Source of the DNA: a virus
Taxonomy: Duplodnaviria; Heunggongvirae; Uroviricota; Caudoviricetes
Length of the DNA stretch: 49,715 nt
Reading direction: 5' to 3' (one strand)
Virus record (IMG/VR): IMGVR_UViG_2851949629_000006
Location: 1-49,715 of that record
Positions 1-42,296 of this stretch are shown here, one piece after another (position 1 is the stretch's first letter; each line of letters opens with the position of its first letter). The notes under the pieces were generated by a model, which saw nothing but the letters and a program-made list of their open reading frames with translations, was not told the DNA's origin and did not search any database. The position numbers and the translations under genes were made by a program.

Positions 1-1257
1 GTGCTTACCGATACAAAATTAAAAAACCTCAAGCCGCAGGACAAACTGTACAAGGTCTCCGATCGTGACGGGCTGTATGTAGCTGTGCTTACGTCAGGCA
101 CGGTCTCGTTTCGCTATGACTACCGTATCAACGGTCGCCGCGAAACACTGGTAATCGGGCAGTATGGGCGTGACGGTATCAGCCTGGCAGAAGCGCGAGA
201 AGAACTGATTGCTGCAAAGAAGCTGCTTAAAGCAGGCCAGTCACCGGCTGCGGCTAAACGTGACGGTATCAAAAAGATTCGTGGTGCCGAGACGTTTGCG
301 GTACATACCGACAGTTATATGAAACACGTCATCCTGGCTGACAGTACCCGCGCAATGAAACAGGCGGTGATCGACCGTGACATACTTCCGGTTCTTGGCA
401 ATAAAATGATGGCTGAAATTACCACATCGATGGTTCGTGATTTGTGTGACCGGATTGTCGAACGCGGTGGCCGGGCAACAGCAGTGCAGGCCAGGGAGAT
501 CATCAGTAGCGTATACCGTCACGCCAATGACCGTGGTCATGGTTTGTTTAATCCTGCGGCTGACATTAAACCTTCGTCTATCGCCATATTTAAACCACGA
601 GAGCGAACACTGACACCAGAAGAAATTGGCCTGTTCTTCCGCACGCTGGATGCCATTGGTGCTATGGGCACTATGAAAATGGCTTTAAAACTGGTGCTTA
701 TCACTATGGTTCGTAAGGGCGAATTCACCAATGCAACGTGGGATGAAATAGATTTTAAAAAATGGACATGGACAATTCCTTCAGACCGCATGAAGGGAAG
801 CCGGGCGCACGTTATTTACCTGCCTAAACAGGCACAGGATATATTGGTTGGGTTGCAGATGTGCGCTGGTGGAAGTGAATATCTGGTTCCTGGTCGTTAC
901 AATTTCCGGAAGCCATTATCTAATGCCGCGCTGAACTCTCTGATCGACAGAACGGTGAAAATAATAAATGAAGATGGTGAGCATATTCAGGGCTTCACCG
1001 TACACGATATGCGCCGTACAGCCAGTACGTTGTTGCATGAGGCTGGTTATCCTTCAGACTGGATTGAAAAGGCTCTGGCACATGAGCAGAAAGGTGTGCG
1101 CGCCGTATATAACAAAGCGGAATACGCCAGACAGCGCGCCTACATGTTGCAGCAGTGGGCCGATATGATTGATTCCTGGATTAACGGGGAGCATACGGAT
1201 CTGATTCCGTTCTCCCCGTCGAAGTTTGAGAAGTGGATGGAAGACAGTAATAAATAA
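1..1257 (+). CDS. P4-type tyrosine integrase; 5' end probably cut by the window edge (ORF opens with GTG at position 1)
   Basis: N-terminal LTDTKLKNLKP...FRYDYR arm-binding-like region and C-terminal HDMRRTAST (H-x-x-R) plus downstream Tyr, as in P4-like integrases. Converges on the phosphatase remnant. Confidence 0.8.
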   Translation: MLTDTKLKNLKPQDKLYKVSDRDGLYVAVLTSGTVSFRYDYRINGRRETLVIGQYGRDGISLAEAREELIAAKKLLKAGQSPAAAKRDGIKKIRGAETFAVHTDSYMKHVILADSTRAMKQAVIDRDILPVLGNKMMAEITTSMVRDLCDRIVERGGRATAVQAREIISSVYRHANDRGHGLFNPAADIKPSSIAIFKPRERTLTPEEIGLFFRTLDAIGAMGTMKMALKLVLITMVRKGEFTNATWDEIDFKKWTWTIPSDRMKGSRAHVIYLPKQAQDILVGLQMCAGGSEYLVPGRYNFRKPLSNAALNSLIDRTVKIINEDGEHIQGFTVHDMRRTASTLLHEAGYPSDWIEKALAHEQKGVRAVYNKAEYARQRAYMLQQWADMIDSWINGEHTDLIPFSPSKFEKWMEDSNK

Positions 1258-1259
1258 TT

Positions 1260-1549
1260 CTATCCTTCCTGGACTTTGGTAAGCGTCAGATTTCCGCAGA
1301 ACACTGCGCCGGTGTCGATGTACATCTGGTTTGCATACACCAGTGGGTGATGTGCTGGCGTATGACCGAAGATGAACAAATCGGCACCGGTTATCTCCGA
1401 GACAATACCGTCCTGCGCGTCGCTAACCCGCTCACGATTCCATATCACCATTTCTTCTGGTACTGGCTTATCGAATGCGTATTCGTTGTGCGGGTAGTCT
1501 GCGTGACAGATGACGACCTTCTTATTGCCGGTAACCAGTTCGATAATCA
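1260..1549 (-). pseudogene. C-terminal fragment of a phage Ser/Thr protein phosphatase (lambda PPase-like), separated from its N-terminal part by the IS66 insertion
   Basis: Translation ...[32 protein letters not shown]...[17 protein letters not shown] matches my recollection of the lambda phosphatase C-terminus. Fragment ends exactly at the IS terminus at 1550. Confidence 0.7.
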
Positions 1550-1579
1550 GTAAGCGTCAACGGAGCACCGTATTGACGC

Positions 1580-2113
1580 TTATTTATTAGTGAGTACTAC
1601 GTTCCATGGCAGGAGTTCGTCAACTCGGTTGGAAGGCCATTCCGGCAGTACGCTCAGGATATGGCGCAGATACGCTTCCGGATCGATACCATTCAACCGG
1701 CAGGTGCCGATCAGCCCGTACAACAGTGCACCACGCTCGCCGCCGTGATCGCTACCGAAGAACACGTAATTTTTCTTTCCGAGACAGACTGCACGAAGCG
1801 CTCTTTCCGCTGTGTTATTGTCCGCCTCCGCCAGACCGTCATCACAGAAGTTGCACAACGCAACCCAGTGCTTCCTGATATACCGGAACGCATCTCTCAG
1901 ACGGCATTTTTTCGATAACGTGTGTTCTTTCTCCTGCATCAGCTTATACAGGGAAGTCAGTAGCGGTTTACTCTGCATTTGCCTGACCGCCAGGCGTTCA
2001 GACACCGGCAACCCGCGTATTTCGTGCTCAATGGCGTACAGTTCGCCGATTAGTTTCAGTGCTTCTTCCGCCGTCGCGCTTTTGGTACTGATATATACAT
2101 CGTGGATTTTGCG
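1580..2113 (-). pseudogene. tnpC: IS66 transposase TnpC, C-terminal fragment of copy 3 (cut by copy 2 insertion)
   Basis: ORF translation aligns with the C-terminal ~140 aa of the full 537-aa TnpC but with substitutions; reading frame runs up to the copy-2 terminus at 2114. Confidence 0.75.
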
Positions 2114-2143
2114 GTAAGCGTTAACGGAGTGCCGTATTGACGC

Positions 2144-3757
2144 TTATTTATTGGTGAGTACTACGTTCCATGGCAGGAGTTCGTCAACTCGGTTGGAAGG
2201 CCATTCCGGCAGTACGCTCAGGATATGGCGCAGATACGCTTCCGGATCGATACCGTTCAGTCGGCAGGTGCTGATCAGCCCGTACAACAGTGCTCCTCGC
2301 TCGCCGCCGTGATCGCTGCCGAAGAACATAAAGTTTTTCTTTCCGAGACAGACTGCACGAAGCGCTCTTTCCGCAGCATTATTATCCGCCTCCGCCAGAC
2401 CGTCATCACTGTAATAACAGAGGGCATCCCACTGATTCAGTACATAGCTGAACGCTTCGCCCAGTCTGGATTTTTTCGACAGCGTACCATTCTTCTCCAC
2501 CATCCATTCATGCAGCGACGTCAGTAACACTTTGCTTCGCTGCTGCCTGACGGCAAGACGCTCTGACTCCGGTAATCCCCGTATTTCATCCTCGATGGCG
2601 TACAGTTCACTGATTCGCTTCAGGGCTTCTTCTGCCGTCGCACTTTTGCTGCTGATGTATACATCGTGGATTTTTCGCCGGGCATGGGCCCAGCACGCAA
2701 CTTCTGTCAGTGCACCACCTTCACGTTCTGCACTGAACAACCTGTCGTAACCTGTGAACGCATCCGCCTGCAGGATACCCCGGAAGGGGCGGAGGTGTTG
2801 CTCCGGGTGTTTCCCCTGCCGGTTCGGCGAGTACGCGAACCAGACCGCTGGAGGAGATGACGAACCCACATTGCGATCATCCCGGACATACGTCCAGATA
2901 CGCCCTGTTTTCGCCTTTTTCTGACCCGGTGCCAGTACCTTTACCGGTGTGTCATCAGTGTGAACCTTGCGGGTGTTCATTACATAACGGTACAGGGCAT
3001 CATTCACCGGTGTCATTAACTGGCAGCACGCGTCAACCCAGTTGGAGAGTAAGGCCCGGCTCAGTTCGACACCCTGGCGGGCAAAGATTTCACTCTGACG
3101 ATACAGTGGCAGATGTTCGCAGTATTTTCCCGTTAACACGCGGGCAAGTAATCCGGGGCCCGCGATACCACGCTCTATCGGGCGGGACGGCGCCGGTGCT
3201 TCAACAATACAGTCACATTTTGTACAGGCTTTTTTTACCCGTTCTGTGCGGATCACTTTCAGGGCACTGCTCACCAGTTCCAGCTGTTCAGCGCTGACTT
3301 CCCCCAGATAATCCAGCTCACCGCCACACTCCGGGCAACAGCTTTCTTCTGGCTCCAGGCGGTGTATTTCACGGGGAAGGTGTGCCGGTAACGGACGACG
3401 ATGGCGCGACTGTCGCAACTGGCGGGGAACCTGAGGATCGTCTTCCCGCCCACTGTAACGATCGCTGTCCTGTTCACGTTGTTTCAGCAGAGCCTCAGCC
3501 AGTTCAACTTCACGACGCAGTTTTTCAGAACGGGTACCGAACAGCATCCGGCGCAGTTTTTCTATCTGAGCCCGCAGATGTTCTATTTCCCGTTCATCTT
3601 CTTCGATCTTTTCTTCGGCACGTGTCAGTGCAGAGCGCAGGAAGGCTTCCGTCTCTTCAACCAGACTCAGTTGCTGGTCTTTCTGACGGAGGGCTTCAGC
3701 CTGCTCAGAGAGCAACCTTTCCAGCTCTGCGATGCGAATGAGGTATTTCTGACTCAT
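2144..3757 (-). CDS. tnpC: IS66 transposase TnpC (copy 2), 537 aa
   Basis: Full-length ORF; translation identical to the copy-1 TnpC; coiled-coil N-terminus, CxxC zinc motif and DDE-type core typical of IS66 TnpC. Confidence 0.85.
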   Translation of the reverse strand: MSQKYLIRIAELERLLSEQAEALRQKDQQLSLVEETEAFLRSALTRAEEKIEEDEREIEHLRAQIEKLRRMLFGTRSEKLRREVELAEALLKQREQDSDRYSGREDDPQVPRQLRQSRHRRPLPAHLPREIHRLEPEESCCPECGGELDYLGEVSAEQLELVSSALKVIRTERVKKACTKCDCIVEAPAPSRPIERGIAGPGLLARVLTGKYCEHLPLYRQSEIFARQGVELSRALLSNWVDACCQLMTPVNDALYRYVMNTRKVHTDDTPVKVLAPGQKKAKTGRIWTYVRDDRNVGSSSPPAVWFAYSPNRQGKHPEQHLRPFRGILQADAFTGYDRLFSAEREGGALTEVACWAHARRKIHDVYISSKSATAEEALKRISELYAIEDEIRGLPESERLAVRQQRSKVLLTSLHEWMVEKNGTLSKKSRLGEAFSYVLNQWDALCYYSDDGLAEADNNAAERALRAVCLGKKNFMFFGSDHGGERGALLYGLISTCRLNGIDPEAYLRHILSVLPEWPSNRVDELLPWNVVLTNK

Positions 3758-3787
3758 GACCGTTTTTATAATGCGGTCAGGAGTTTT

Positions 3788-4070
3788 TTACAACATTGTC
3801 AGTGAGTTACGGCTGGATGTTTTTGGCTGACGCCAGTCCAGCTTATCGAGGAGCATTGCCAGTTGCGAGCGGGTAATGGATACCTTGCCGTCACGTACCG
3901 CAGGCCAGATAAACTGGCCTTCCTCCAGGCGTTTGGTGAACAGGCACAGACCATCAGCATCAGCCCAAAGAATTTTGACGGTGTCACCCCGTCGGCCACG
4001 GAAGATAAACAGGTGACCGGAGAAGGGATTATCATTCAGCACATGTTGTACCTGTTCTCCCAGTCCGTTG
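3788..4070 (-). pseudogene. tnpB: IS66 TnpB (orfB) of copy 2, C-terminal part, cut by copy 1
   Basis: Translation matches residues ~34-116 of intact TnpB (5745-6095); N-terminal remainder is at 6603-6678. Confidence 0.75.
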
Positions 4071-4100
4071 GTAAGCGTTAACGGAGTGCCGTATTGACGC

Positions 4101-5714
4101 TTATTTATTGGTGAGTACTACGTTCCATGGCAGGAGTTCGTCAACTCGGTTGGAAGGCCATTCCGGCAGTACGCTCAGGATATGGCGCAGATACGCTTCC
4201 GGATCGATACCGTTCAGTCGGCAGGTGCTGATCAGCCCGTACAACAGTGCTCCTCGCTCGCCGCCGTGATCGCTGCCGAAGAACATAAAGTTTTTCTTTC
4301 CGAGACAGACTGCACGAAGCGCTCTTTCCGCAGCATTATTATCCGCCTCCGCCAGACCGTCATCACTGTAATAACAGAGGGCATCCCACTGATTCAGTAC
4401 ATAGCTGAACGCTTCGCCCAGTCTGGATTTTTTCGACAGCGTACCATTCTTCTCCACCATCCATTCATGCAGCGACGTCAGTAACACTTTGCTTCGCTGC
4501 TGCCTGACGGCAAGACGCTCTGACTCCGGTAATCCCCGTATTTCATCCTCGATGGCGTACAGTTCACTGATTCGCTTCAGGGCTTCTTCTGCCGTCGCAC
4601 TTTTGCTGCTGATGTATACATCGTGGATTTTTCGCCGGGCATGGGCCCAGCACGCAACTTCTGTCAGTGCACCACCTTCACGTTCTGCACTGAACAACCT
4701 GTCGTAACCTGTGAACGCATCCGCCTGCAGGATACCCCGGAAGGGGCGGAGGTGTTGCTCCGGGTGTTTCCCCTGCCGGTTCGGCGAGTACGCGAACCAG
4801 ACCGCTGGAGGAGATGACGAACCCACATTGCGATCATCCCGGACATACGTCCAGATACGCCCTGTTTTCGCCTTTTTCTGACCCGGTGCCAGTACCTTTA
4901 CCGGTGTGTCATCAGTGTGAACCTTGCGGGTGTTCATTACATAACGGTACAGGGCATCATTCACCGGTGTCATTAACTGGCAGCACGCGTCAACCCAGTT
5001 GGAGAGTAAGGCCCGGCTCAGTTCGACACCCTGGCGGGCAAAGATTTCACTCTGACGATACAGTGGCAGATGTTCGCAGTATTTTCCCGTTAACACGCGG
5101 GCAAGTAATCCGGGGCCCGCGATACCACGCTCTATCGGGCGGGACGGCGCCGGTGCTTCAACAATACAGTCACATTTTGTACAGGCTTTTTTTACCCGTT
5201 CTGTGCGGATCACTTTCAGGGCACTGCTCACCAGTTCCAGCTGTTCAGCGCTGACTTCCCCCAGATAATCCAGCTCACCGCCACACTCCGGGCAACAGCT
5301 TTCTTCTGGCTCCAGGCGGTGTATTTCACGGGGAAGGTGTGCCGGTAACGGACGACGATGGCGCGACTGTCGCAACTGGCGGGGAACCTGAGGATCGTCT
5401 TCCCGCCCACTGTAACGATCGCTGTCCTGTTCACGTTGTTTCAGCAGAGCCTCAGCCAGTTCAACTTCACGACGCAGTTTTTCAGAACGGGTACCGAACA
5501 GCATCCGGCGCAGTTTTTCTATCTGAGCCCGCAGATGTTCTATTTCCCGTTCATCTTCTTCGATCTTTTCTTCGGCACGTGTCAGTGCAGAGCGCAGGAA
5601 GGCTTCCGTCTCTTCAACCAGACTCAGTTGCTGGTCTTTCTGACGGAGGGCTTCAGCCTGCTCAGAGAGCAACCTTTCCAGCTCTGCGATGCGAATGAGG
5701 TATTTCTGACTCAT
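4101..5714 (-). CDS. tnpC: IS66 transposase TnpC (copy 1), 537 aa
   Basis: Intact ORF, identical to 2144-3757. Confidence 0.85.
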   Translation of the reverse strand: MSQKYLIRIAELERLLSEQAEALRQKDQQLSLVEETEAFLRSALTRAEEKIEEDEREIEHLRAQIEKLRRMLFGTRSEKLRREVELAEALLKQREQDSDRYSGREDDPQVPRQLRQSRHRRPLPAHLPREIHRLEPEESCCPECGGELDYLGEVSAEQLELVSSALKVIRTERVKKACTKCDCIVEAPAPSRPIERGIAGPGLLARVLTGKYCEHLPLYRQSEIFARQGVELSRALLSNWVDACCQLMTPVNDALYRYVMNTRKVHTDDTPVKVLAPGQKKAKTGRIWTYVRDDRNVGSSSPPAVWFAYSPNRQGKHPEQHLRPFRGILQADAFTGYDRLFSAEREGGALTEVACWAHARRKIHDVYISSKSATAEEALKRISELYAIEDEIRGLPESERLAVRQQRSKVLLTSLHEWMVEKNGTLSKKSRLGEAFSYVLNQWDALCYYSDDGLAEADNNAAERALRAVCLGKKNFMFFGSDHGGERGALLYGLISTCRLNGIDPEAYLRHILSVLPEWPSNRVDELLPWNVVLTNK

Positions 5715-5744
5715 GACCGTTTTTATAATGCGGTCAGGAGTTTT

Positions 5745-6095
5745 TTACAACATTGTCAGTGAGTTACGGCGGGATGTTTTTGGCTGACGCCAGTCCAGTT
5801 TATCGAGGAGCATTGCCAGTTGCGAGCGGGTAATGGATACCTTGCCGTCACGTACCGCAGGCCAGATAAACTGGCCTTCCTCCAGGCGTTTGGTGAACAG
5901 GCACAGACCATCAGCATCAGCCCAAAGAATTTTGACGGTGTCACCCCGTCGGCCACGGAAGATAAACAGGTGACCGGAGAAGGGATTATCATTCAGCACA
6001 TGTTGTACCTGTTCTCCCAGTCCGTTGAAGGATTTACGCATATCGGTAACGCCGGCAACGAGCCAGATACGGGTACCTGATGGGAGTGAGATCAT
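5745..6095 (-). CDS. tnpB: IS66 accessory protein TnpB (orfB), copy 1
   Basis: 116-aa ORF between tnpA and tnpC, 4-bp overlap with tnpA; typical IS66 orfB size and position. Confidence 0.8.
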   Translation of the reverse strand: MISLPSGTRIWLVAGVTDMRKSFNGLGEQVQHVLNDNPFSGHLFIFRGRRGDTVKILWADADGLCLFTKRLEEGQFIWPAVRDGKVSITRSQLAMLLDKLDWRQPKTSRRNSLTML

Positions 6096-6517
6096 CTTCC
6101 CCTCCCGGTCAGTTCACGGATCAACACTGTGAGCAGCTCTGGCGATGGATTTTCCAGCGTCATGTTACCGTGACGGAATTCCACCTTGCAGGAACTGGCA
6201 CTGACTCTGGTCTGAGTGGAAGTGGATAAAGACGGCGCAATGGCCGCCACAGGTTCTTTCTGCTCATCCGGCGTTATTTCTACAGGTAATAATTCAACGC
6301 CAGTGTCAGAAGAGGTCGTTACCGGAAGACGCCGCGAAACACGCCCTTCGTTCTGCCAGAGCCTGAGCCATTTGAAAATAACATTATCATTGACGCCATT
6401 TTCACGTGCAATCTGTGCAACACAAGCTCCAGGTTGTGATGCCAGTTCCACCATACGAAGTTTGAATTCATTCGAATAGTTTTTACGAGGTTCTTTTCGC
6501 CAGTCCTGTAATTCCAT
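6092..6517 (-). CDS. tnpA: IS66 accessory protein TnpA (orfA), copy 1
   Basis: 141-aa ORF with a helix-turn-helix region (NEFKLRMVELASQPGACVAQIARENGV); first gene of the IS66 operon. Confidence 0.8.
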   Translation of the reverse strand: MELQDWRKEPRKNYSNEFKLRMVELASQPGACVAQIARENGVNDNVIFKWLRLWQNEGRVSRRLPVTTSSDTGVELLPVEITPDEQKEPVAAIAPSLSTSTQTRVSASSCKVEFRHGNMTLENPSPELLTVLIRELTGRGR

Positions 6518-6602
6518 ACTTAGATGTCCGTCTATATCAGATGGGCGTCTAAGTTACCAATTCTCGTCTGATGGCTACATACGGCGGTCAGTTTACGCTT
6601 AC

Positions 6603-6678
6603 GTCCGTTGAAGGATTTACGCATATCGGTAACGCCGGCAACGAGCCAGATACGGGTACCTGATGGGAGTGAGATCAT
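6603..6678 (-). pseudogene. tnpB: IS66 TnpB (orfB) of copy 2, N-terminal 25 codons, continues at 3788-4070
   Basis: Reverse complement encodes MISLPSGTRIWLVAGVTDMRKSFNG, identical to the TnpB N-terminus; interrupted at the GTCCGTTG duplication. Confidence 0.75.
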
Positions 6679-7100
6679 CTTCCCCTCCCGGTCAGTTCAC
6701 GGATCAACACTGTGAGCAGCTCTGGCGATGGATTTTCCAGCGTCATGTTACCGTGACGGAATTCCACCTTGCAGGAACTGGCACTGACTCTGGTCTGAGT
6801 GGAAGTGGATAAAGACGGCGCAATGGCCGCCACAGGTTCTTTCTGCTCATCCGGCGTTATTTCTACAGGTAATAATTCAACGCCAGTGTCAGAAGAGGTC
6901 GTTACCGGAAGACGCCGCGAAACACGCCCTTCGTTCTGCCAGAGCCTGAGCCATTTGAAAATAACATTATCATTGACGCCATTTTCACGTGCAATCTGTG
7001 CAACACAAGCTCCAGGTTGTGATGCCAGTTCCACCATACGAAGTTTGAATTCATTCGAATAGTTTTTACGAGGTTCTTTTCGCCAGTCCTGTAATTCCAT
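6675..7100 (-). CDS. tnpA: IS66 accessory protein TnpA (orfA), copy 2
   Basis: Identical translation to 6092-6517. Confidence 0.8.
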   Translation of the reverse strand: MELQDWRKEPRKNYSNEFKLRMVELASQPGACVAQIARENGVNDNVIFKWLRLWQNEGRVSRRLPVTTSSDTGVELLPVEITPDEQKEPVAAIAPSLSTSTQTRVSASSCKVEFRHGNMTLENPSPELLTVLIRELTGRGR

Positions 7101-7185
7101 ACTTAGATGTCCGTCTATATCAGATGGGCGTCTAAGTTACCAATTCTCGTCTGATGGCTACATACGGCGGTCAGTTTACGCTTAC

Positions 7186-8273
7186 ATTTTGCGCCGCGCA
7201 TGAGCCCAGCATCCTGCTTCCGTCAACGCGCCGCCTTCACGTTCGGCACTGAACAGCCGATCGTAACCTGCGAACGCATCTGCCTGCAGGATACCCCGGA
7301 AGGGACGAAGGTGTTGCTCCGGATGTTTACCCTGATGGTCCGGTGAGTAGGCGAACCAGACCGCCGGAGGTTCTGGCGAACCGGCATTTCGGTCATCCCG
7401 GACATACGTCCAGATATATCCTGTTTTCGCCTTCTTCCTGCCCGGTGCCAGTACTTTTACTGGTGTGTCATCAGTGTGAACCTTGCGGGTGTTCATCACA
7501 TAACTGTACAGGGCATCATTCAGCGGAGTCATTAACTGGCAGCACGCATCAACCCAGTTGGAGAGTAAGGCACGGCTCAGTTCGACACCCTGGCGGGCAA
7601 AGATTTCACTCTGACGATACAGTGGCAGGTGTTCGCAGTATTTTCCCGTTAACACGCGGGCAAGTAACCCCGGGCCCGCGATACCACGCTCTATCGGACG
7701 GGATGGTGCCGGTGCTTCAACGATGCAGTCACATTTTGTACAGGCTTTTTTTACCCGTTCTGTGCGGATCACTTTCAGGGCGCTGCTCACCAGCTCCAGT
7801 TGTTCTGCGCTGACTTCCCCCAGATAATCCAGCTCACCGCCACACTCCGGGCAACAGCTTTCTTCAGGCTCCAGGCGGTATATTTCACGGGGGAGATGTG
7901 CCGGTAACGGACGACGATGGCGCGACTGTCGCAACTGGCGGGGAACCAGCGGGTCATCCTCACGCCCACTGTAACGATCGCTTTCCTGCTCGCGTTGTTT
8001 CAGCAGGACTTCAGCCTGTTCAACCTCACTACGCAGTTTTTCAGAACGGGTTCCGAACAGCATCCGGCGCAGTTTTTCTATCTGAGCCCGCAGATGCTCT
8101 ATTTCTCGCTCATCTTCTTCGATCTTTTCTTCGGCACGTGCCAGTGCAGAGCGCAGGAAGGCCTCCGTCTCTTCAACCAGACTCAGTTGCTGGTCTTTCT
8201 GACGGAGGGCTTCAGCCTGCTCAGAGAGCAGCCTTTCCAGCTCAGCGATGCGAATGAGGTATTTCTGACCCAT
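7186..8273 (-). pseudogene. tnpC: IS66 transposase TnpC of copy 3, N-terminal ~360 codons (cut by copy 2)
   Basis: Translation MGQKYLIRIAELERLL... is a diverged homolog of copy 1/2 TnpC; ORF runs into the copy-2 terminus and stops 4 nt inside it. Confidence 0.75.
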
Positions 8274-8303
8274 GGCCGTTTTTATAATCCGGCCCGGCGT
8301 TTT

Positions 8304-8654
8304 TTACAACATTGTCAGTGCGTTAAGGCGGGATGTTTTTGGCTGACGCCAGTCCAGCTTATCGAGGAGCATTGCCAGTTGCGAGCGGGTAATGGATATC
8401 TTACCGTCATGCACCGCAGGCCAGATAAACTGACCTTCCTCAAGGCGTTTGGTGAACAGGCACAGACCATCAGCATCAGCCCACAGGATTTTAATCGTGT
8501 CTCCCCGTCGGCCACGGAAGATAAACAGGTGACCGGAGAAGGGGTTATCATCCAGCACATGCTGTATCTGCTCCCCCAGACCGTTGAAGGATTTACGCAT
8601 ATCAGTAACGCCGGCAACGAGCCAGATACGGGTACCTGATGGGAGTGAAATCAT
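8304..8654 (-). CDS. tnpB: IS66 accessory protein TnpB (orfB), copy 3
   Basis: 116-aa ORF, diverged homolog of copy-1 TnpB. Confidence 0.8.
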   Translation of the reverse strand: MISLPSGTRIWLVAGVTDMRKSFNGLGEQIQHVLDDNPFSGHLFIFRGRRGDTIKILWADADGLCLFTKRLEEGQFIWPAVHDGKISITRSQLAMLLDKLDWRQPKTSRLNALTML

Positions 8655-9088
8655 CGTCCCCTCCCGGTCAGCTCACGGATCAACACCGTGAGCAGCTCTG
8701 GTGAAGGATTTTCCAGCATCATTTTACCGTAATGGAATTCCACATGGCAGGAAGCTGCACAAGCAACTGATAATGCCTCCGGAGCAGGAGCATCTGTAGC
8801 ACAGCGCGGGGTGTCGATAAGTTCCACTGGAACCAGAGTCGGAGAGGCCGGAAAAGATTGTGATACTGTAGGGCCTACAATAGTTGGAGGCATTCTACGA
8901 GAAATACGTCCTTCTCTTTGCCAGAGGCGTAGCCATTTAAAAATCAGGTTGTTATCAACGCCATGTTCCCGGGCCAGTTGTGCAACATTGGCATTTGGTT
9001 TCGAAGCCAGTTCAACCATATGAAGTTTAAATTCATTAGAAAATATCCGGCGGGTTCCGGAGCGCCAGTCTGTAGGTTTATCCATCAA
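8651..9088 (-). CDS. tnpA: IS66 accessory protein TnpA (orfA), copy 3
   Basis: 145-aa ORF, diverged homolog of copy-1 TnpA (conserved NEFKL.MVELAS and FKWLRLWQ segments). Confidence 0.8.
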   Translation of the reverse strand: MMDKPTDWRSGTRRIFSNEFKLHMVELASKPNANVAQLAREHGVDNNLIFKWLRLWQREGRISRRMPPTIVGPTVSQSFPASPTLVPVELIDTPRCATDAPAPEALSVACAASCHVEFHYGKMMLENPSPELLTVLIRELTGRGR

Positions 9089-9170
9089 TAGAACTCCGTC
9101 TAATTTAGAAGGAGCTCTAATTTAGTCTGCAAGGAGCAGGTGTTACAGACGGCATTGGCTTTACGCTTAC

Positions 9171-9548
9171 GATAATCATCGGGAGGTTGGTAATCTTTGG
9201 CAGAAGGTATTTGAGTTGCACATCCTGCTCAGAATCAAGTTGGTGCCACCATCCACCGCCGTTTGACATCCAATGTCCGAAACTTCCGCCGTTGACCAGT
9301 GCATCCAGCATCATCTGCTCATGGTTGCCACGAACAGCTCGGAACCACGGCATAGTAATCAAATCCAGGCATTCGACGTTTTCAGCGCCGCGGTCAACAA
9401 GGTCACCAACGGAAATAAGTAAATCGCGCGCCGGGTCGAATGAAACTTTGTCGAGTTCGTTCATCAGCAGCGTGTAGCACCCATGCAGATCGCCGACGAC
9501 GAAGATATTGCACCAGTCAGCGCCATTGATGCGTTGATATAGGTTCAT
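9171..9548 (-). pseudogene. N-terminal fragment of phage Ser/Thr protein phosphatase, target of the IS66 insertion
   Basis: Canonical metallophosphoesterase motifs visible in the translation: [26 protein letters not shown] then runs into IS-derived codons before stopping. Confidence 0.75.
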
Positions 9549-10195
9549 GCTGCACGCTCCCGCCCCTGGTTGTCTATTGGTGACACCGGAGCATTGCTGA
9601 ATGCATTTGTTAATCCGCCAATATCCAACGCGTATCCGGGGTGTAGTTGCACTGCCGGGTCTTCACACTGATTACCCCAAACATCGAAGCCATGAGACGT
9701 CTGGCGGGCGAACAGTTCAATGCGAGAAACATCGCCTAACAATTGCACAAGTTTTTCACGAACGATATCTGGTTTTCTTGAGTGCTCAAGCCGCGGTGCG
9801 GTAAATGACTGAACGATCCCTGCATTAATGCGCGTAGGTAGTTTTCCCTTTACTGCAAACAGGCAATCTTCACTATTGGCGCGAGTCATGTGTCCCATAC
9901 CCATAACCAGTTTATCTGGTTGTCGACTACCACATTTTATCCACGTGAAGCCCTTCATGGTCATCAGACGGAATCCCCAGGCTTCAACAACTTTTAGTGC
10001 TTCGAGTGGTTGTGTTGGCACCCACCACATGGCCAACAGACAGTTTTCACCGGCCAAATCCCACACAGGAAGGCGGCAGATATCCAGCACACTCATAACC
10101 GGATATTTAAAACCGGCACCGCGATTACCATCTGTGGCTTTGTCCCGGTATGCCCAGGGTGGATCTGCATAGATTAGTGTGTATTTCTTAGTCAT
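9545..10195 (-). CDS. DNA methyltransferase, MT-A70/N6-adenine type
   Basis: N-terminal [10 protein letters not shown] (DPPW catalytic motif); start ATG at 10195 preceded by a GGTGG RBS; 4-bp overlap with the phosphatase start. Confidence 0.7.
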
Positions 10196-10487
10196 ATACC
10201 ACCCCACAACATCCTATGCCGCTATAGTCGCCACGGCGAAGGCCGTTACCTTTTGTGATACATTGGTCCCTGCGAACCGCGATCCTTGCACGTTCAACAT
10301 CACCAGAAGCAACATCCATACACTGAAGCCAAAGGTGGGCGGCAATGCGGAACTGCCCTTTTTTCTCTCTTTCAATCGCGCGTTTTTCGATCTCTATCGC
10401 CGCAGGAGTAACGGCAACAACCTTTGAAGGGCTGCGCATTGAAACCTTGTTCATGTGATATTTTTCAAGTCGGCTTAACTTTCTCAC
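10188..10487 (-). CDS. hypothetical early protein
   Basis: ORF in the leftward early operon; stop abuts the MTase start; start codon uncertain. Confidence 0.4.
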   Translation of the reverse strand: MRKLSRLEKYHMNKVSMRSPSKVVAVTPAAIEIEKRAIEREKKGQFRIAAHLWLQCMDVASGDVERARIAVRRDQCITKGNGLRRGDYSGIGCCGVVYD

Positions 10488-10596
10488 TTAATCCAACCCT
10501 CTCTGAAAATTAATGCCAGCAGATAAAGCCATGCTGAAACAGAGGCCAGGAATAAGTACCATCCTGACCATTTGATCCAGTGCCTTAGCAGCGCAC

Positions 10597-10845
10597 TCAT
10601 GCAGCGTTGCTCACGGGACGATATACACGTTGCTGAACAGGAGGTTTTTTACCCTGGAACTCTGCCGGGCTTGCTGCCTGACGTTCATCAAGCCAACGCT
10701 CAACTTCGTCACGGTTCCATGCGCAGCGTTTGTCAGTGATATACCAGCGTTTAGGAAATTCCCCTGCGCGCTCCATGCGGTCGATAGTGCTCCATGACAG
10801 TGGCACCACCGCCAGGAGTTCCTTCTTGCCTAATGCACCTTTCAT
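10597..10845 (-). CDS. AlpA-family phage transcriptional regulator / excisionase-like protein
   Basis: 82-aa protein with the AlpA-type motif KELLAVVPLSWSTIDRMERAGEFPK. Confidence 0.65.
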   Translation of the reverse strand: MKGALGKKELLAVVPLSWSTIDRMERAGEFPKRWYITDKRCAWNRDEVERWLDERQAASPAEFQGKKPPVQQRVYRPVSNAA

Positions 10846-10894
10846 AAATACCTCTCTTGGTTGCAGTGCGGCGCGCGTGGCGCCGCGGTGGTGG

Positions 10895-11836
10895 TTACAT
10901 AGATGTTTCGTTTAATTCTTCCCGACGAACGCTGTAAACGTCGGTGGCTTTTGCCAGCAGTTCGTCATCATCTGAAAGTTTTTGTGCAATGTATTTGTAA
11001 GCCTTATCCAGTTCGGAGACAGTGCTGTAATTCATCGCTGCGCTGGTAAAGGCCATCAGCATTTCTTCTGGATCACGGCTATCCGCTTTACGCGTTTGCT
11101 CATCAGGCTTTTTCACTGGTTTAGCGTTGATCAGACTGTTCATTCCCGCAGCAGTGGTCGTTTGCGGAGTAATGTCTCGCTCAACGCGCGGTGCCGTTTC
11201 CTGTAATTCGTCTGGTGTGTAGACGCCCATGATTACGTCAGGACAGTGCAAGCGAGACCAGCGTTTTGTCGCAAGGTATGCGAGTTGTTGTTTCGGATCA
11301 CTGGCCCAAAGTGTGGAGTTTCTTACCTGTGCTTGAGACAGCATTAACTCAAGCACTCGAGGTTGATCCTCGCCCTTCATGGTTGCCCATACGCGAACAC
11401 CGCAGCCTTCTTCGTCTTTTAGAGTCCAGCCTGGTGCGATATATGGATTGCCGTTTTTGGATGTTTTCTCAACAAACTTACCGATCACGCGTTCCCACGG
11501 CCCGAACCACTCGTAGTTGATGCGATCTTTTGTTGGCGACATCGTTGAGATAACTGCGTTTACTAATTGGGCTTCATAACCTAGCGTGCCGTTCACAACA
11601 TGGGTTTTCTGAGCCACGGCAAACGGGTTCATTCCCCACTGCGCAGCCTGCATTGCCACGGCCATGCAATCAGCTGGTTTCCCGGCGAGGTGCGCCGGTA
11701 CCGTTACGCGGCTTTGCGCCATTACCTCGGCGAATTTCATCAGTTGGTTCAAGCCGTCTGGGCTGAAAATAGTTGCAGCAGTTCCAGCGATTGCGGTGTC
11801 TACTGGTGCGTTGATGTTTGCGATGTCGTTGCTCAT
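10895..11836 (-). CDS. RecT-like single-strand annealing protein
   Basis: Size, position directly downstream of the exonuclease with an ATGA start/stop overlap, and loose similarity to RecT-family segments. ORF-track N-terminal extension rejected in favour of the ATG at 11836. Confidence 0.5.
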   Translation of the reverse strand: MSNDIANINAPVDTAIAGTAATIFSPDGLNQLMKFAEVMAQSRVTVPAHLAGKPADCMAVAMQAAQWGMNPFAVAQKTHVVNGTLGYEAQLVNAVISTMSPTKDRINYEWFGPWERVIGKFVEKTSKNGNPYIAPGWTLKDEEGCGVRVWATMKGEDQPRVLELMLSQAQVRNSTLWASDPKQQLAYLATKRWSRLHCPDVIMGVYTPDELQETAPRVERDITPQTTTAAGMNSLINAKPVKKPDEQTRKADSRDPEEMLMAFTSAAMNYSTVSELDKAYKYIAQKLSDDDELLAKATDVYSVRREELNETSM

Positions 11837-12654
11837 ATGTACATATCCTGTTTGCGTGCCCACTCAGGGCGTTTAATGATTTCCACACCGCCCCATTCAT
11901 CATTGATGCGGCATTCGTGATAGGTATTCAGATCCCGGCGGAACAGAGCGTGCCCAGCATCGACATCCTGCGCATCCAGCTCGAACACGCGTACCGGATA
12001 CCGACCACAATCAATGCTTTCGCTCACGGCAAGAAAGAAAAAACCATGCGGCTGACCAGTAACCCTCATTGCGCCTTCGCGGTACATTGCGTCCTGCACG
12101 TGGTAGCGGAATTCCTCGATGTGGCGTGCAAAACGGTCCATATCTGCAACCTTTTTCACGTCGACGATCACGTTGTGCTCGTTCAGCCATTTGTCTGGAC
12201 GAATTCGGCACAACTCACCCGTCTCTTCATCGTTCCAGTACATTGATGCTTCGCAGTAACCAGGTGCTTCCAACATCCAGCGTGCCGCCGGATGAGCCAT
12301 TGCGCTATCACGCATCAGCTCCAGTTTCCGCCACTGCTCGGCATCAAGTACCGCAATCCCCATATCCGCTACATCACGAAGAAATGCTTCTGCGTCAGCT
12401 TTACCTTGTTTCGTTCGACGATCGAACTTTGGTGAAACAATGAAGCGTTTGTCGAATTCTCCAGGTTCCAGAAGCAGACAGTGCAATGCAGTTCCCATAT
12501 CTAGTTCAGACTTTTTCTCTTCGTCTTCTGGTGCTGCCTGAACCCATTTAAGAAGCGCCGGATTCTTGGCAACCATGTCCAGTTGCGACTTACTCACGCC
12601 GTCACCGGCGTGGTAGTCTTCGTTGCTGATGTCGAAATAGATGCCAGTATTCAT
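11833..12654 (-). CDS. PD-(D/E)XK-family exonuclease (RecE/YqaJ-like recombination exonuclease)
   Basis: 273-aa ORF immediately upstream of the annealase gene; classic two-gene phage recombination module; family assignment by context and residue pattern, not a search. Confidence 0.5.
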   Translation of the reverse strand: MNTGIYFDISNEDYHAGDGVSKSQLDMVAKNPALLKWVQAAPEDEEKKSELDMGTALHCLLLEPGEFDKRFIVSPKFDRRTKQGKADAEAFLRDVADMGIAVLDAEQWRKLELMRDSAMAHPAARWMLEAPGYCEASMYWNDEETGELCRIRPDKWLNEHNVIVDVKKVADMDRFARHIEEFRYHVQDAMYREGAMRVTGQPHGFFFLAVSESIDCGRYPVRVFELDAQDVDAGHALFRRDLNTYHECRINDEWGGVEIIKRPEWARKQDMYI

Positions 12655-12857
12655 AACTTAACCTTGTATTCGTTCTGCTTGTTGGAACGGGGTCCATCGT
12701 GGAAATATATTGCGCTCCTGGTTACCTCTACCCATTTGCGACGTTCAAGCTCAGCGATGAACCAAGAAACCTTCGATCTTGAGATACCAAGAATCTTTGC
12801 CATATCTCGGATGCTGTGTTTTCCACCTCGCAGCAATGAGAGGAGTGTTGGTTTCAT
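12651..12857 (-). CDS. small helix-turn-helix DNA-binding protein
   Basis: 68 aa, HTH-like SIRDMAKILGISRSKVSWFIAEL. Confidence 0.5.
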   Translation of the reverse strand: MKPTLLSLLRGGKHSIRDMAKILGISRSKVSWFIAELERRKWVEVTRSAIYFHDGPRSNKQNEYKVKL

Positions 12858-13168
12858 GCCGCGTCCCTCTGTCCATCAAGCTGATCCGCCAGATCCCAGC
12901 GGGCGATAATTGCCATTGCCTCTCGCCGATAGGCATCCATCAGTTCTTCGAACTCAGGGCTGTCTTTAGCAGCCTCCAGTACTTCCTGGCGAACGCCTTT
13001 GCCTGTTACAACGTCGAAAGTTGAGGACAGTTGATGAAGTCGGATGCTCTCAATCAGTTCAACTTGTCGGTCATATAGCTGTTCTGACAGGCGGTAGTCC
13101 TTGTCGAATGCCAGCATGATTTTTTGAAGATTTTTCTGCTGATTAACGTTCATTATCAGCCCTCCCAT
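12854..13168 (-). CDS. hypothetical early protein
   Basis: 104-aa ORF, first gene of the leftward operon downstream of O_L. Confidence 0.4.
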   Translation of the reverse strand: MGGLIMNVNQQKNLQKIMLAFDKDYRLSEQLYDRQVELIESIRLHQLSSTFDVVTGKGVRQEVLEAAKDSPEFEELMDAYRREAMAIIARWDLADQLDGQRDAA

Positions 13169-13314
13169 ATCTCGTTATCGTTGGCCACATCGCGAGCTTC
13201 TTTGCTGACGAAAGCCCACTTAATGCCTTCCTGTAAGGTGCGGAACTTCCAGCTCATGAATCCGCATGCAGTAACGCAGTACCAACCGTTGATGATTTTC
13301 CACTACATAATTTG

Positions 13315-13404
13315 TTACCTCGGTCTGTTACCGTTGAGGTAATGATTATGCGTATCTGGTTTGATGTCAATAGATATGAGTTAAAAAAATTACCCGACAG
13401 GTAA
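13315..13404. promoter_or_regulatory. O_L-like operator cluster: palindromes TTACCGTTGAGGTAA (13328-13342) and TTACCCGACAGGTAA (13390-13404), plus half-site at 13315
   Basis: 15-bp TTACC-N5-GGTAA inverted repeats between the repressor gene 3' end and the leftward early operon. Confidence 0.6.
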
Positions 13405-13461
13405 TTGAGCAGGCAATAAAAAAGCCGCCAGAAGGCAGCTTACTTACTGAAAAATATGATT

Positions 13462-14046
13462 TTATTGTTTGTTTTTTTCGTTCTGGTTGATGACAAATTC
13501 AATGTAACTTTCGATCTTTGCCTTCTCTGTTTCAGGTAACAATGCGTAGCGCGAGCGGTCATAGTTGATAGTCGCGGGGTCGTGCGGGTGAATCAGTAAT
13601 TCATAGCCGTGACGCCCGAATGCGGATGCAACATTCTCCAGGGTGGAAATGGAAACGCTGACCTCATTGTTTAACAGGCGGCTGATTGTCACCTGGGCGA
13701 CGCCGGATGCGCGGTGAAGTTTTCCCTGAGTTGAAAGGTCGCGGCTTTCGCTCATCCAGCGTTCCAGGTTGTGAGCCGCCAGCTGACCAATGTCGCTTGG
13801 GCCGACAGGCTGAAAACCTTCCTGAGAAAGCGAGCGATCGATATCAAGCCAGTTACGGGGTTTATTGGCGGCAGCTTCAATTTTTCGCGCAACCTGGTCG
13901 CCGATAACCTTCTTGCCAAGAGCCCAGCGGTTTACCAGATTTGCCTGAGTTCCAAGTTTTTCTGCCATCCGCGTCTGAACACCATTGAATTCACGGTCGA
14001 TCAAGTCGTTGAGATTTTGCCTGCGGACGTCCTGGATACTTTTCAT
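13462..14046 (-). CDS. prophage repressor with two HTH domains and no S24 peptidase domain
   Basis: Sits between the O_L and O_R palindrome clusters, divergent from the cro-like gene. Two HTH-like segments (TRMAEKLGTQANLVNRW and GVAQVTISRLLNNE). No Ser-Lys autocleavage domain recognisable. Confidence 0.6.
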   Translation of the reverse strand: MKSIQDVRRQNLNDLIDREFNGVQTRMAEKLGTQANLVNRWALGKKVIGDQVARKIEAAANKPRNWLDIDRSLSQEGFQPVGPSDIGQLAAHNLERWMSESRDLSTQGKLHRASGVAQVTISRLLNNEVSVSISTLENVASAFGRHGYELLIHPHDPATINYDRSRYALLPETEKAKIESYIEFVINQNEKNKQ

Positions 14047-14101
14047 TTTCTGGAAAATCGCCTCATATATGAATCAGTAGATGATTCAATTTAAAGCAAT
14101 A

Positions 14102-14164
14102 TTACCCAACAGGTAAATGCACCCCATAGGTAACTATCCTTGATTTTTGTTACCTTATGGGTGA
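14102..14164. promoter_or_regulatory. O_R-like operator cluster: TTACCCAACAGGTAA (14102-14116), half-site CATAGGTAA, TTACCTTATGGGTGA (14150-14164)
   Basis: Palindromes in the 154-bp divergent region between repressor start (14046) and cro-like start (14201). Confidence 0.6.
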
Positions 14165-14200
14165 ATATTTATTATCTGAAATAAATATCAGGCAATAGCT

Positions 14201-14431
14201 ATGAGCGATAACGGACATTTCGATTTCAAAAAGCACTGGCTTGCACTTACTCCGGATGAGCGTGAAGCCTTCGCACAGGAAGCCGGAACGACGAGTCACT
14301 ATATCCAGACTCACTTAACAGGTAAGCGAAAAATGCCAGGTAAGGTATTGATGAATGGGCTTTTTAAAGCCTGTAAATCAAGACAATGGCTGCGCTCAAA
14401 AGCAGAACTGGCATACTTCTTCTACTCATGA
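14201..14431 (+). CDS. Cro-like small regulator
   Basis: 76-aa ORF divergent from the repressor, immediately right of O_R; functional assignment is by position. Confidence 0.5.
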   Translation: MSDNGHFDFKKHWLALTPDEREAFAQEAGTTSHYIQTHLTGKRKMPGKVLMNGLFKACKSRQWLRSKAELAYFFYS

Positions 14432-14581
14432 TATCCAGCCACAACCCTCTGTAGACCGCCATCCGGCGGTCTTTTCATATCTATTCGCACCTCAAAGGTA
14501 ATAAAAAACCAAATCTGGTTGATCTTTTTTTTGTGTCAGCACAAAATGACCGTAATCCCAATACTAATAACAGGGCTTACC

Positions 14582-14782
14582 ATGGAAATCATTACACGTA
14601 TTGATGCCGCAAAGCGCGGACTTAAACGCTATTACACCGGAAAACAATGTAAGCACGGACATGACAGTGAACGCTGGGTTTACAACGGACACTGTGTTGA
14701 GTGCACCATGGAATCAAACCGTCGCATCAGGGCAGAGATTAAGCAGATCATGATTAATTCCTCCCCACAACATTCAAGCTGA
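14582..14782 (+). CDS. small Cys/His-rich (zinc-ribbon-like) protein
   Basis: C-x2-H...C-x2-C pattern (CKHGHDSERWVYNGHCVEC); ATG at 14582 preferred over the longer ORF-track start at 14519. Confidence 0.4.
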   Translation: MEIITRIDAAKRGLKRYYTGKQCKHGHDSERWVYNGHCVECTMESNRRIRAEIKQIMINSSPQHSS

Positions 14783-14797
14783 TAGCGGAGATTAATC

Positions 14798-41485: not shown

Positions 41486-42142
41486 TCAGAAGAACCCTGC
41501 CTTGTCGTTGATGTACTCCGCGTGAGTCTGGATATCACGCAGGCATTTGCTCACACCGACGATGTAGCAGAACATGGTGGTCAGCTCCGCCGCCGCGCCC
41601 GATACGTCGTGCCCGTCGTCCTGTAACTGGTTCAGCAGATTCATCAGCAGTGAGTTCTCCGTCAGGCCGAGAACACCAGACGGAGAATGAATCAGACTGC
41701 GGTAGCCAGGCTTCAGTGGGGCGCTGTATTCTTTTTTGTCTTCCAGCTTGATCGCCTCCATAATGGCGGGCATGAAGCCTGACAAGACCTTCTCCACTTT
41801 TGTTTCTTGTTGTCTTAAACGTTTCTCGCATTCAATGAAGTAGCGTCGCACCTGGCGACCTTTTTCGTTACGCTCGACCATTGCCAGCTCTTTGGCTGTA
41901 TCGAGGGTGAGGTGGTACTCTTTGCGGTTGTGGCCGCCTCTACCAGATGTTTGCTTTCCCAAATTGGAAAGCAAAATATAGTCTTGATTTTCAATGAATT
42001 CGTATTCTGAAATTCGATTTGTAATCCATGCTGCAAACACCTTTTTAACACCTAAAAAAGCGTGCAGATCGCGGGCATTACAAAGTAGGGCTGTTTCGTT
42101 AGATATAGTGCCGTTGAATACGGGGATGAGTTGAGCGTTCAT
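41486..42142 (-). CDS. antirepressor (AntA/Ant-like)
   Basis: 218 aa; N-terminal ...[22 protein letters not shown]... and ...[35 protein letters not shown]... resemble the AntA/AntB N-terminal domain. GGAG RBS. Confidence 0.6.
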
Positions 42143-42296
42143 GATGGTGTCTCCACTTAGCGAATTACATCACCACCGCAACGCCAATTACTGGTGGTGA
42201 ACTGAACAAGGTTGGCGTACCGGCCTAAGTGGTACCGGCGTCCTTTCGGACCCCTGCCCAGCCCACCATAATTCGGATATAGCTGTGCTTAACGCA

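Follow-up and report, generated by a model that had tools for sequence, protein, structure and literature searches.

Three IS66-family elements inserted one within another in the phosphatase gene of a phiV10-like Escherichia coli prophage

Related elements and prophages

IS66-family elements are bounded by imperfect terminal inverted repeats starting 5'-GTAAGCG and are ~2.4-2.7 kb in length; under the ISfinder naming convention, elements sharing >~95% nucleotide identity are regarded as the same named element. Transposition of IS679, an element studied by Han et al. in 2001, reportedly needs all three ORFs. Two elements, ISEc43 and ISEc23, were found at the locus analyzed here: (i) ISEc43 was flanked by an 8-bp direct repeat in SGI1-B-Ec1 (PMC6531882), and (ii) ISEc23 matched >2,000 records at at least 99%, its interruption by IS1, IS2, IS3-family elements, and ISEc52 being common among the top ISEc23 matches listed. 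Intact reference copies of ISEc43 and ISEc23 (L005 and L006) were also flanked by 8-bp duplications.

The window, namely the whole 49,715-nucleotide stretch of DNA that was analyzed, contained a phiV10/TL-2011b-like (Uetakevirus) prophage adjoining guaA in E. coli. This prophage and its relatives phiV10, TL-2011b, and vB_EcoP_PAS61 shared the gene order int–phosphatase–methyltransferase, the relatives were integrated beside guaA, and the remaining window had 96-98% identity to Uetakevirus phages over ~80% of 24 kb. The prophage was ~48 kb in length compared to 39-45 kb in its Uetakevirus relatives, and its phosphatase gene was split. The elements at the split were known ones and nested transposition is a known phenomenon, no new element or mechanism being involved; a triple nest is unusual. 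Compared to nested IS-in-IS structures of enterobacterial chromosomes and plasmids, the locus likewise had younger elements inside older ones, each with its own target duplication, and likewise kept the inner element intact and the outer ones inactivated, but it differed from routine nests in displaying three levels from one family in the same orientation with none decayed. The literature on nested IS66, ISEc23, and ISEc43 gave routine mentions only.

Structure of the nest

Stepwise removal together with family profile matches bore out the first-pass annotation in its reading of three IS66-family elements lying one within another, and all the boundaries it had given for copy 1 (innermost), copy 2 (middle), and copy 3 (outermost) proved exact, as did the three 8-bp target duplications, all intact. 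It had also correctly placed copy 3 in a phage Ser/Thr phosphatase gene (codons 124-126 of 219), copy 2 in tnpC of copy 3 (codons 361-363 of 537), and copy 1 in tnpB of copy 2 (codons 23-26 of 116). The three elements shared one orientation (minus strand, as did every feature given below). Rebuilding, by excision of every inner element along with one of the two copies of its 8-bp duplication, yielded tnpA, tnpB, and tnpC whole in all three copies plus a 219-aa phosphatase ORF.

Copy 3 (1550-9170; 7621 bp as found, 2541 bp when rebuilt from 1550-2113 plus 7194-9170) was flanked by TSD3 GATAATCA at 1542-1549 and 9171-9178. Its 564-bp left part (1550-2113) had the terminal inverted repeat on the tnpC side, from 1550, followed by the 3' portion of tnpC (1580-2113), with the left TSD2 copy at 2106-2113, while its right part (7186-9170) contained the right TSD2 copy (7186-7193), the 5' 1080 nt of tnpC (7194-8273; now a truncated 363-aa ORF at 7182-8273), intact tnpB (8304-8654), and tnpA (8651-9085), with a terminal repeat that ends at 9170. 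The rebuilt sequence was 2541/2541 identical to intact ISEc43 of E. coli MB06101, and 7194-9170 was 100% identical to annotated ISEc43 copies of several E. coli strains; copy 3 was assigned to ISEc43 through the PGAP label of the MB06101 element ('IS66-like element ISEc43 family transposase'). Compared to ISEc43, rebuilt copy 3 likewise made an 8-bp duplication, but its tnpC was interrupted here by ISEc23.

Copy 2 (2114-7185; 5072 bp as found) was flanked by TSD2 ATTTTGCG at 2106-2113 and 7186-7193. The 1957-bp left part (2114-4070) had a terminal repeat, which was followed by a complete tnpC (2144-3757; 537 aa) and by the 3' portion of tnpB (3788-4070), with the left TSD1 copy at 4063-4070; the 583-bp right part (6603-7185) contained the right TSD1 copy (6603-6610), a 5' fragment of tnpB (6603-6678; ~25 codons), and an intact tnpA (6675-7100), with a terminal repeat that closes the element at 7185. 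Interruption of tnpB resulted in a truncated TnpB product. Removal of copy 1 plus one duplication (leaving 2114-4070 plus 6611-7185) gave a 2532-bp element that was 2532/2532 identical to intact ISEc23 of ETEC (E. coli) TW10690.

Copy 1 (4071-6602; 2532 bp), flanked by TSD1 GTCCGTTG at 4063-4070 and 6603-6610, was the only copy with tnpC (4101-5714), tnpB (5745-6095), and tnpA (6092-6517) all intact, tnpA and tnpB overlapping by ATGA at 6092-6095. It displayed 99.92% identity over 2532 bp to ISEc23 of TW10690, and copies 1 and 2 were both assigned to ISEc23 through the PGAP label of TW10690 ('IS66-like element ISEc23 family transposase'). Copies 1 and 2 had the same 2532 bp and the same tnpA–tnpB–tnpC layout as ISEc23, the element itself showing no differences; relative to the TW10690 copy, copy 1 had two private substitutions, while copy 2 was interrupted in tnpB. 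The right part of copy 2 (6603-7185) had 100% identity to positions 1950-2532 of copy 1, but the two copies, previously described as apparently identical, differed in alignment at 2/2532 positions (IS positions 1701 and 1729), and one of these differences altered TnpB residue 109 (S109R in copy 1). Copy 3 had 84% overall identity to copies 1 and 2 in a mosaic pattern, and protein identities between ISEc23 and ISEc43 were 91% for TnpC, 94% for TnpB, and only 57% for TnpA.

The phosphatase gene was the final gene of the leftward early operon, convergent to int, and was split in the middle of the catalytic domain by 7,629 bp of IS DNA into (i) a 5' part (9171-9548; codons 1-126, with the right TSD3 copy at 9171-9178), now a 143-aa ORF (9117-9548) running into the IS end, and (ii) a 3' part (1262-1549; codons ~124-219 plus stop, with the left TSD3 copy at 1542-1549). 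Joining 1262-1549 to 9179-9548 gave a 219-aa Metallophos ORF (58.7 bits against Pfam Metallophos, cut-off 21.5), and the joined sequence was 658/658 identical to a phage PAS61 gene annotated as serine/threonine protein phosphatase NinI, in which GATAATCA was present once at the insertion point. In the translation, GDLHG, GDLVDRG, and GNHE (RGNHE) motifs were read, as would be expected of a NinI/PP-lambda-like phosphatase; all three were retained by the 5' fragment, which was severed from the C-terminal His motifs. The phosphatase is a non-essential accessory gene of the prophage and is probably inactive here.

All three elements began with GTAAGCGT and finished with ACGCTTAC, and all six element ends were intact; within the window these terminal 8-mers were found at the six element ends, with a single further GTAAGCGT at 1279. 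A repeat search of the window independently recovered three-copy families. When segments of the same lengths were placed at random, an exact 8-bp flank match was obtained in 13/200,000 placements, and three exact duplications out of three were therefore far beyond chance. The target sequences of the three insertions had no common motif. Homologous recombination was rejected as the origin of the structure, since neither matched 8-bp duplications at all three insertions nor exact rebuilt sequences would result from it.

Membership of the IS66 family was supported by profile matches of all three proteins: TnpC scored 452.7 bits against NCBIfam transpos_IS66 (cut-off 180) and exceeded the gathering scores of Pfam DDE_Tnp_IS66, DDE_Tnp_IS66_C, zf-IS66, and LZ_Tnp_IS66; TnpB scored 120.9 bits against NCBIfam IS66_TnpB (cut-off 50) and also matched Pfam TnpB_IS66; and TnpA scored 83 bits (ISEc23) and 68 bits (ISEc43, slightly under) against IS66_ISRel24_TnpA (cut-off 74), Pfam HTH_Tnp_1 also being matched among the IS66 accessory proteins. 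In addition, tnpA and tnpB lay upstream of tnpC in the classical three-ORF IS66 arrangement, all three elements made the 8-bp target-site duplication of the family, the two ends of ISEc23 agreed at 8/8 positions and, over the first 25, at ~19, and the lengths of 2532, 2532, and 2541 bp and the ends fitted the description of the family given above. All three copies were near-identical to the elements labeled ISEc23 or ISEc43 by PGAP.

Occurrence of the site and its junctions elsewhere

The insertion site was empty in 144/5,426 complete E. coli genomes. One prophage with an empty site (L003) was 99.93% identical to the prophage studied over ~7.5 kb on each side of the site, and the site was also empty in another (L004). 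The phosphatase::ISEc43 junction was found in 0/5,426 of these genomes, and the inner junctions had no true single-piece match in the same set. Matches listed as 100% covered for the inner junctions were dismissed as artefacts, the halves of the query having matched 560-860 bp apart within one ordinary IS and been joined. Exact strings of the junctions (40-44 nt for the internal ones) were likewise not found for any of the three junctions in IMG/VR, for J1 (phosphatase::ISEc43) and internal J3 in GTDB representative genomes, or for both internal junctions (J2 and J3) in JGI metagenomes, and exact look-up of the two junction-spanning ORF products returned nothing on record. The three unique junctions, absent from the 5,426 complete E. 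coli genomes, are lineage-specific markers.

An 8.3-kb query with the whole nest was uninformative on nesting, its matches in genomes having collapsed onto single ISEc23 copies; one match, in strain ABW_A19 (L002), consisted of two IS66-family elements in a disordered side-by-side arrangement and was no clean nest. Among 51 IS66-bearing IMG/VR loci fetched via TnpC, no IS66-in-IS66 nest was found. A few of these loci had deletions or were interrupted by non-IS66-like sequence. Across the 5,426 genomes covered for the nest junctions and the 51 IMG/VR loci, IS66 within IS66 was not encountered a second time.

Order, age, and origin of the insertions

The divergence of copy 3 had been taken in the first-pass annotation to give the order of insertion, but this inference was false: copy 3 was another IS, ISEc43, and its divergence from the inner copies was ruled out as dating evidence by its identity to ISEc43 elsewhere, the full 2541/2541 match to an intact copy of another strain meaning that it had no sign of decay. 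The order of insertion followed from the nesting topology and not from divergence, and strictly a composite assembled beforehand would fit the topology as well. The recent age proposed for the inner two copies stood, whereas the older age proposed for the outer copy on the ground of its divergence did not, and all three looked recent. As judged from the empty site in L003 and in the 144 genomes and from the absence of the junctions from the collections scanned, the insertions appear to be recent and private to the lineage; ISEc23 and ISEc43 would both have been recently active in the source strain.

The structure is very probably the product of three ordinary IS66-family transpositions occurring successively at one spot in the prophage. 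ISEc43 would have entered the phosphatase gene, duplicating GATAATCA; ISEc23 would then have entered tnpC of ISEc43, duplicating ATTTTGCG; and a second ISEc23 would have entered the tnpB gene of the earlier ISEc23, with duplication of GTCCGTTG. The DDE transposase TnpC, helped by accessory TnpA and TnpB, would have carried out each insertion, cleaving the target with an 8-bp stagger whose repair would give the 8-bp duplication, and the insertions would have been tolerated because each fell in dispensable DNA. At present, ISEc43 has no intact tnpC and the middle ISEc23 no intact tnpB; the innermost ISEc23 alone is complete and is likely to be the sole autonomous element, and mobilization of the 5.1-kb and 7.6-kb composites might still occur given transposase from another copy. 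Several points weigh against stepwise insertion: topology and duplications are common to three in-place steps and to a composite assembled elsewhere; the two substitutions between copies 1 and 2 are clustered and leave the donor of copy 1 unfixed; and two nested insertions into ~2.5-kb targets are improbable if random in a 5-Mb genome. Some insertion bias may have operated, for example local hopping or self-integration, or IS DNA may simply have been a neutral target.

Non-random self-targeting, that is, local hopping or self-integration of a copied-out ISEc23 into its donor or a neighboring IS66 element, would account for this improbability and for the near-identity of copies 1 and 2; it would refine stepwise insertion and not exclude it. 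It is nevertheless unlikely, being a post hoc argument from a single locus: 0/51 IS66-bearing IMG/VR loci had an IS66-in-IS66 nest, the nest junctions were in none of the 5,426 complete E. coli genomes, the two differences between copies 1 and 2 do not establish copy 2 as the donor, and the common interruption of ISEc23 by unrelated IS elements fits IS DNA as a neutral landing site. In a variant of self-targeting, IS66 transpososomes would favor positions in IS66 DNA a fixed distance away from an end; the two inner insertions lay at similar distances (564 bp from the ISEc43 left end and 583 bp from the ISEc23 right end), but the three target sequences shared no motif. That the nest is the footprint of such a target bias, with re-integration ~0.57 kb from an element end, is very doubtful; if true, it would be self-targeting or local hopping of a kind not described for the poorly characterized IS66 family. 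New insight into IS66 target choice would come only if IS66-in-IS66 nests were over-represented genome-wide.

A composite, either the 5,072-bp ISEc23-in-ISEc23 or the whole 7,621-bp nest, might alternatively have been assembled elsewhere in the genome and transposed as a unit via its intact outer ends, with transposase from the intact inner copy or another copy. All six terminal repeats were intact, the innermost copy encoded full TnpA, TnpB, and TnpC, the TnpC and TnpB proteins of ISEc23 and ISEc43 were close to each other (see above), and the duplications alone do not set the order of events. Such a transfer is quite improbable: the internal junctions occurred in no other context among the 5,426 complete E. 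coli genomes and were absent from the three further collections as detailed above, an element two- to three-fold oversized would have to move, a scenario with no gain in parsimony over stepwise insertion, and transfer of the whole nest would require recognition of ISEc43 ends despite the low TnpA identity.

The physical linkage of the six junctions at one locus rests on the assembly, and the earlier caveat of an assembly artefact, with fewer IS copies at the true locus and repeats misplaced or duplicated, was reasonable (repeats 84-99.9% identical over 2.5 kb are hard for assemblers, and the junctions were confirmed by no second genome) but is unlikely to apply, and the artefact itself is highly improbable, since the assembler would need to have invented six unique junctions, along with three perfect 8-bp duplications of different sequence, that rebuild base-for-base into a known phosphatase gene, ISEc43, and ISEc23, repeat collapse or expansion gives tandem or missing copies and not a nest pattern, the window contained no N, and the two positions at which copies 1 and 2 differ were kept distinct in the assembly.

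The relevance of the locus lies chiefly in annotation and epidemiology: it should be annotated as one intact ISEc23, one ISEc23 broken in tnpB, one ISEc43 broken in tnpC, and a phosphatase pseudogene in two parts, whereas without the nest reading the same stretch resembles seven unrelated transposase fragments. With the nest, the prophage grew from ~40.5 kb to ~48 kb (~19%), an enlargement that may block its packaging and suggests an oversized, possibly immobilized prophage.

Structure and identity of the nested elements

Three IS66-family copies were nested in the window: copy 3 (1550–9170), flanked by GATAATCA, was inserted in a phage phosphatase gene; copy 2 (2114–7185), flanked by ATTTTGCG, lay within copy 3; and copy 1 (4071–6602, 2532 bp), with GTCCGTTG on either flank, lay within copy 2. 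The left-hand strings of the two internal junctions were CCCAGTCCGTTGGTAAGCGTTAACGG and TGGATTTTGCGGTAAGCGTTAACGG. Extraction of all boundaries from the sequence agreed to the base with those of the first-pass annotation, and its claim of three intact target duplications also held, each flanking its own element on both sides. All three copies started with GTAAGCGT and ended with ACGCTTAC, and in the 49.7-kb window these 8-mers were found at the six element ends and as one extra GTAAGCGT at 1279, and nowhere else. Random placement of segments of these sizes gave an exact 8-bp flank match in 13 of 200,000 cases, and thus such matches at all three elements were not due to chance; a repeat search of the window independently recovered the three-copy repeat families.

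The elements and the gene could be rebuilt stepwise: removal of copy 1 plus one GTCCGTTG yielded copy 2 (2532 bp), removal of copy 2 plus one ATTTTGCG yielded copy 3 (2541 bp), and both rebuilt elements had uninterrupted minus-strand tnpA (141 or 144 aa), tnpB (116 aa), and tnpC (537 aa). Removal of copy 3 plus one GATAATCA yielded a 219-aa ORF encoding a calcineurin-like metallophosphoesterase (Pfam Metallophos). The rebuilt phosphatase DNA was identical (658/658) to its counterpart in Escherichia phage vB_EcoP_PAS61, annotated as serine/threonine protein phosphatase, NinI, and matched two Logan contigs with related prophages, L003 and L004, at 657/658 positions each; PAS61, L003, and L004 all had a single GATAATCA at the insertion site. 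The initial reading of three nested IS66-family copies disrupting a phage phosphatase was correct in substance.

TnpC matched transpos_IS66 (452.7 bits; cut-off 180), TnpB matched IS66_TnpB (120.9 bits; cut-off 50), and ISEc23 TnpA matched IS66_ISRel24_TnpA (83 bits; cut-off 74), while the Pfam matches comprised DDE_Tnp_IS66, DDE_Tnp_IS66_C, zf-IS66, LZ_Tnp_IS66, TnpB_IS66, and HTH_Tnp_1. The protein models, the ATGA overlap of tnpA and tnpB, the 8-bp duplications, and the GTAAGCG ends together gave the elements every sequence-level hallmark of the IS66 family. Copy 1 showed 99.6–99.9% identity to elements labeled 'ISEc23 family' by PGAP, rebuilt copy 2 matched ISEc23 of enterotoxigenic E. coli (ETEC) strain TW10690 at 2532/2532 positions, and rebuilt copy 3 matched an intact ISEc43 in E. 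coli MB06101 at 2541/2541 positions; the best IS matches were in ETEC strains. The MB06101 ISEc43 had its own 8-bp duplication TCGCATTG, and ISEc43 with an 8-bp direct repeat was reported earlier (PMC6531882). Judged by sequence, the elements are already known (ISEc23 twice and ISEc43 once), and nested insertion with target duplications is a known phenomenon. The nest is ordinary in kind but an unusually clean three-level example in a prophage accessory gene, and it is of value for correct annotation, as a source of lineage markers, and as evidence for recent IS66-family activity.

Copy 3 interrupted codons 124–126 of 219 of the phosphatase gene, so that the motifs GDLHG, GDLVDRG, and GNHE on the N-terminal side were cut off from the histidine motifs on the C-terminal side, and phosphatase activity is predicted to be lost. 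The gene was the last of the leftward early operon, convergent to int, and therefore polarity on the remaining phage genes would not be expected. Copy 2 interrupted ISEc43 tnpC at codons 361–363 of 537, within the DDE domain (residues 196–486, a span taken from the homologous ISEc23 protein), and copy 1 interrupted copy 2 tnpB at codons 23–26 of 116, leaving the full tnpA/tnpB/tnpC set in copy 1 only. Since all six element ends were intact, the larger composites would in principle be mobilisable by transposase from another copy. The phosphatase gene also contained, in its 3′ end (1279–1288), a 10-nt match (GTAAGCGTCA) to the ISEc43 left terminal repeat, 271 bp away from where ISEc43 had inserted and probably due to chance.

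Order and age of the insertions

Copies 1 and 2, initially taken as identical, differed at IS positions 1701 (window 5771 versus 3814) and 1729 (5799 versus 3842); the reference alleles were those of copy 2, copy 1 carried G1701 and T1729, and one difference altered TnpB residue 109. The two differences lay 28 nt apart at the tnpB 3′ end, and at position 1701 copy 1 had the base of ISEc43; they look like one small patch rather than independent mutations, possibly arising by gene conversion. Copy 3 was a mosaic with 84% identity to copies 1 and 2 (protein identity: TnpC 91%, TnpB 94%, and TnpA 57%), because it was a different IS and not because of age; being base-perfect against ISEc43 elsewhere, it was uninformative through its divergence on order or age. 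The order outer, middle, inner, first argued from this divergence, thus stood by nesting alone: ISEc43 would have entered the phosphatase gene first, followed by ISEc23 into ISEc43 and then by a second ISEc23 innermost. The inner two insertions had been singled out as recent, and this was upheld for them but not as a distinction from copy 3: none of the three copies showed decay, and the prophage in L003 (Logan ERR119381 contig 158) was 99.93% identical over ~7.5 kb around the site (window 1–1549 plus 9170–15152) with the site empty. All three insertions look recent.

Occurrence elsewhere and alternative readings

The empty site was present in 144 of the 5,426 complete E. coli genomes searched, in many of them at 100% identity, while the phosphatase::ISEc43 junction (J1) was found in none of the 5,426, and neither inner junction (J2 or J3) had a true single-piece match among complete E. 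coli genomes; rows with '100% coverage' for the inner junctions were rejected as two joined pieces of one IS. The exact junction strings were absent from IMG/VR (all three), from GTDB representative genomes (J1 and J3), and from JGI metagenomes (J2 and J3), and look-up of the junction-spanning ORF products found no record. In E. coli ABW_A19 (NZ_CP067307.1; positions 1711–5030 of the extracted locus), an ISEc23-like element occupied the tnpC place of another IS66-family element, which was in the opposite orientation and had tnpA and tnpB, with more IS66 fragments 2 kb off; this untidy IS66-next-to-IS66 arrangement was rejected as a clean nest.

Three successive insertions would be compatible with a targeting bias, be it local hopping or self-integration. 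There was a hint of such a bias: two hits on 2.5-kb targets were improbable under random insertion, and the inner insertions lay 564 bp from the ISEc43 left end (window 1550–2113) and 583 bp from the ISEc23 right end (6603–7185), an agreement expected in ~3% of cases for two random positions but noted post hoc. Against such a bias, this was a single locus examined post hoc, IS66-in-IS66 nests were present in 0 of 51 IS66-bearing IMG/VR loci, and ISEc23 copies broken by unrelated IS were common, which fitted IS DNA as a harmless landing place. Movement of a pre-assembled composite as one unit, although compatible with the sequence taken alone, is improbable and was without support, because the internal junctions were found in no other context in the genomes and databases searched. 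An assembly artefact is very improbable, as it would have to invent three unique junction pairs, each with a perfect 8-bp duplication, from which three known sequences could be rebuilt exactly.

Host prophage

The window represented a phiV10/TL-2011b/PAS61-like (Uetakevirus) prophage, with 96–98% identity to those phages over ~80% of 24 kb; int adjoined guaA in close relatives. L003 and L004 (the latter being Logan ERR862921 contig 94, with an identical methyltransferase protein and matching gene order) both had an uninterrupted phosphatase gene, with int next to guaA, serving as natural empty-site comparators, and their strains are possible relatives of the window's strain. The window right end contained what we take, from E. 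coli K-12 gene order, to be yfgI- and yfgH-like ORFs, and an att-like hairpin was located near 48.1 kb; this right-end context indicated a prophage of ~48 kb with the nest (~40.5 kb without it; relatives, 39–45 kb), and the 19% excess length may block packaging.

A DnaT-like primosomal/replication gene (ORF 14798–15346) had an in-frame TAG at 15344–15346, where PAS61 had CAG (Gln), and its product was 182 aa long rather than 271 aa, with the homologous frame continuing past the stop; the TAG may represent a nonsense mutation and a second sign of prophage decay. At 37486–37583, within ORF 35815–37662 for a large virion or injection protein, a 45-nt stretch was perfectly duplicated in tandem (2.2 copies, 100% match), which repeats the 15 residues LDDDGNPQSRRAREV in the protein. 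The stretch 42190–42374 (minus strand) matched two Rfam families, C4 antisense RNA (64.7 bits) and isrK (67.2 bits), and lay directly upstream of a putative antirepressor-like ORF (41486–42142, minus strand); as read from the translation, the arrangement would resemble a P1/P7-type c4–icd–ant immunity module. A phage-borne tRNA-Arg(TCT) was identified by ARAGORN and Rfam at 23624–23700 (minus strand), with the terminase region on one side and the head genes on the other.
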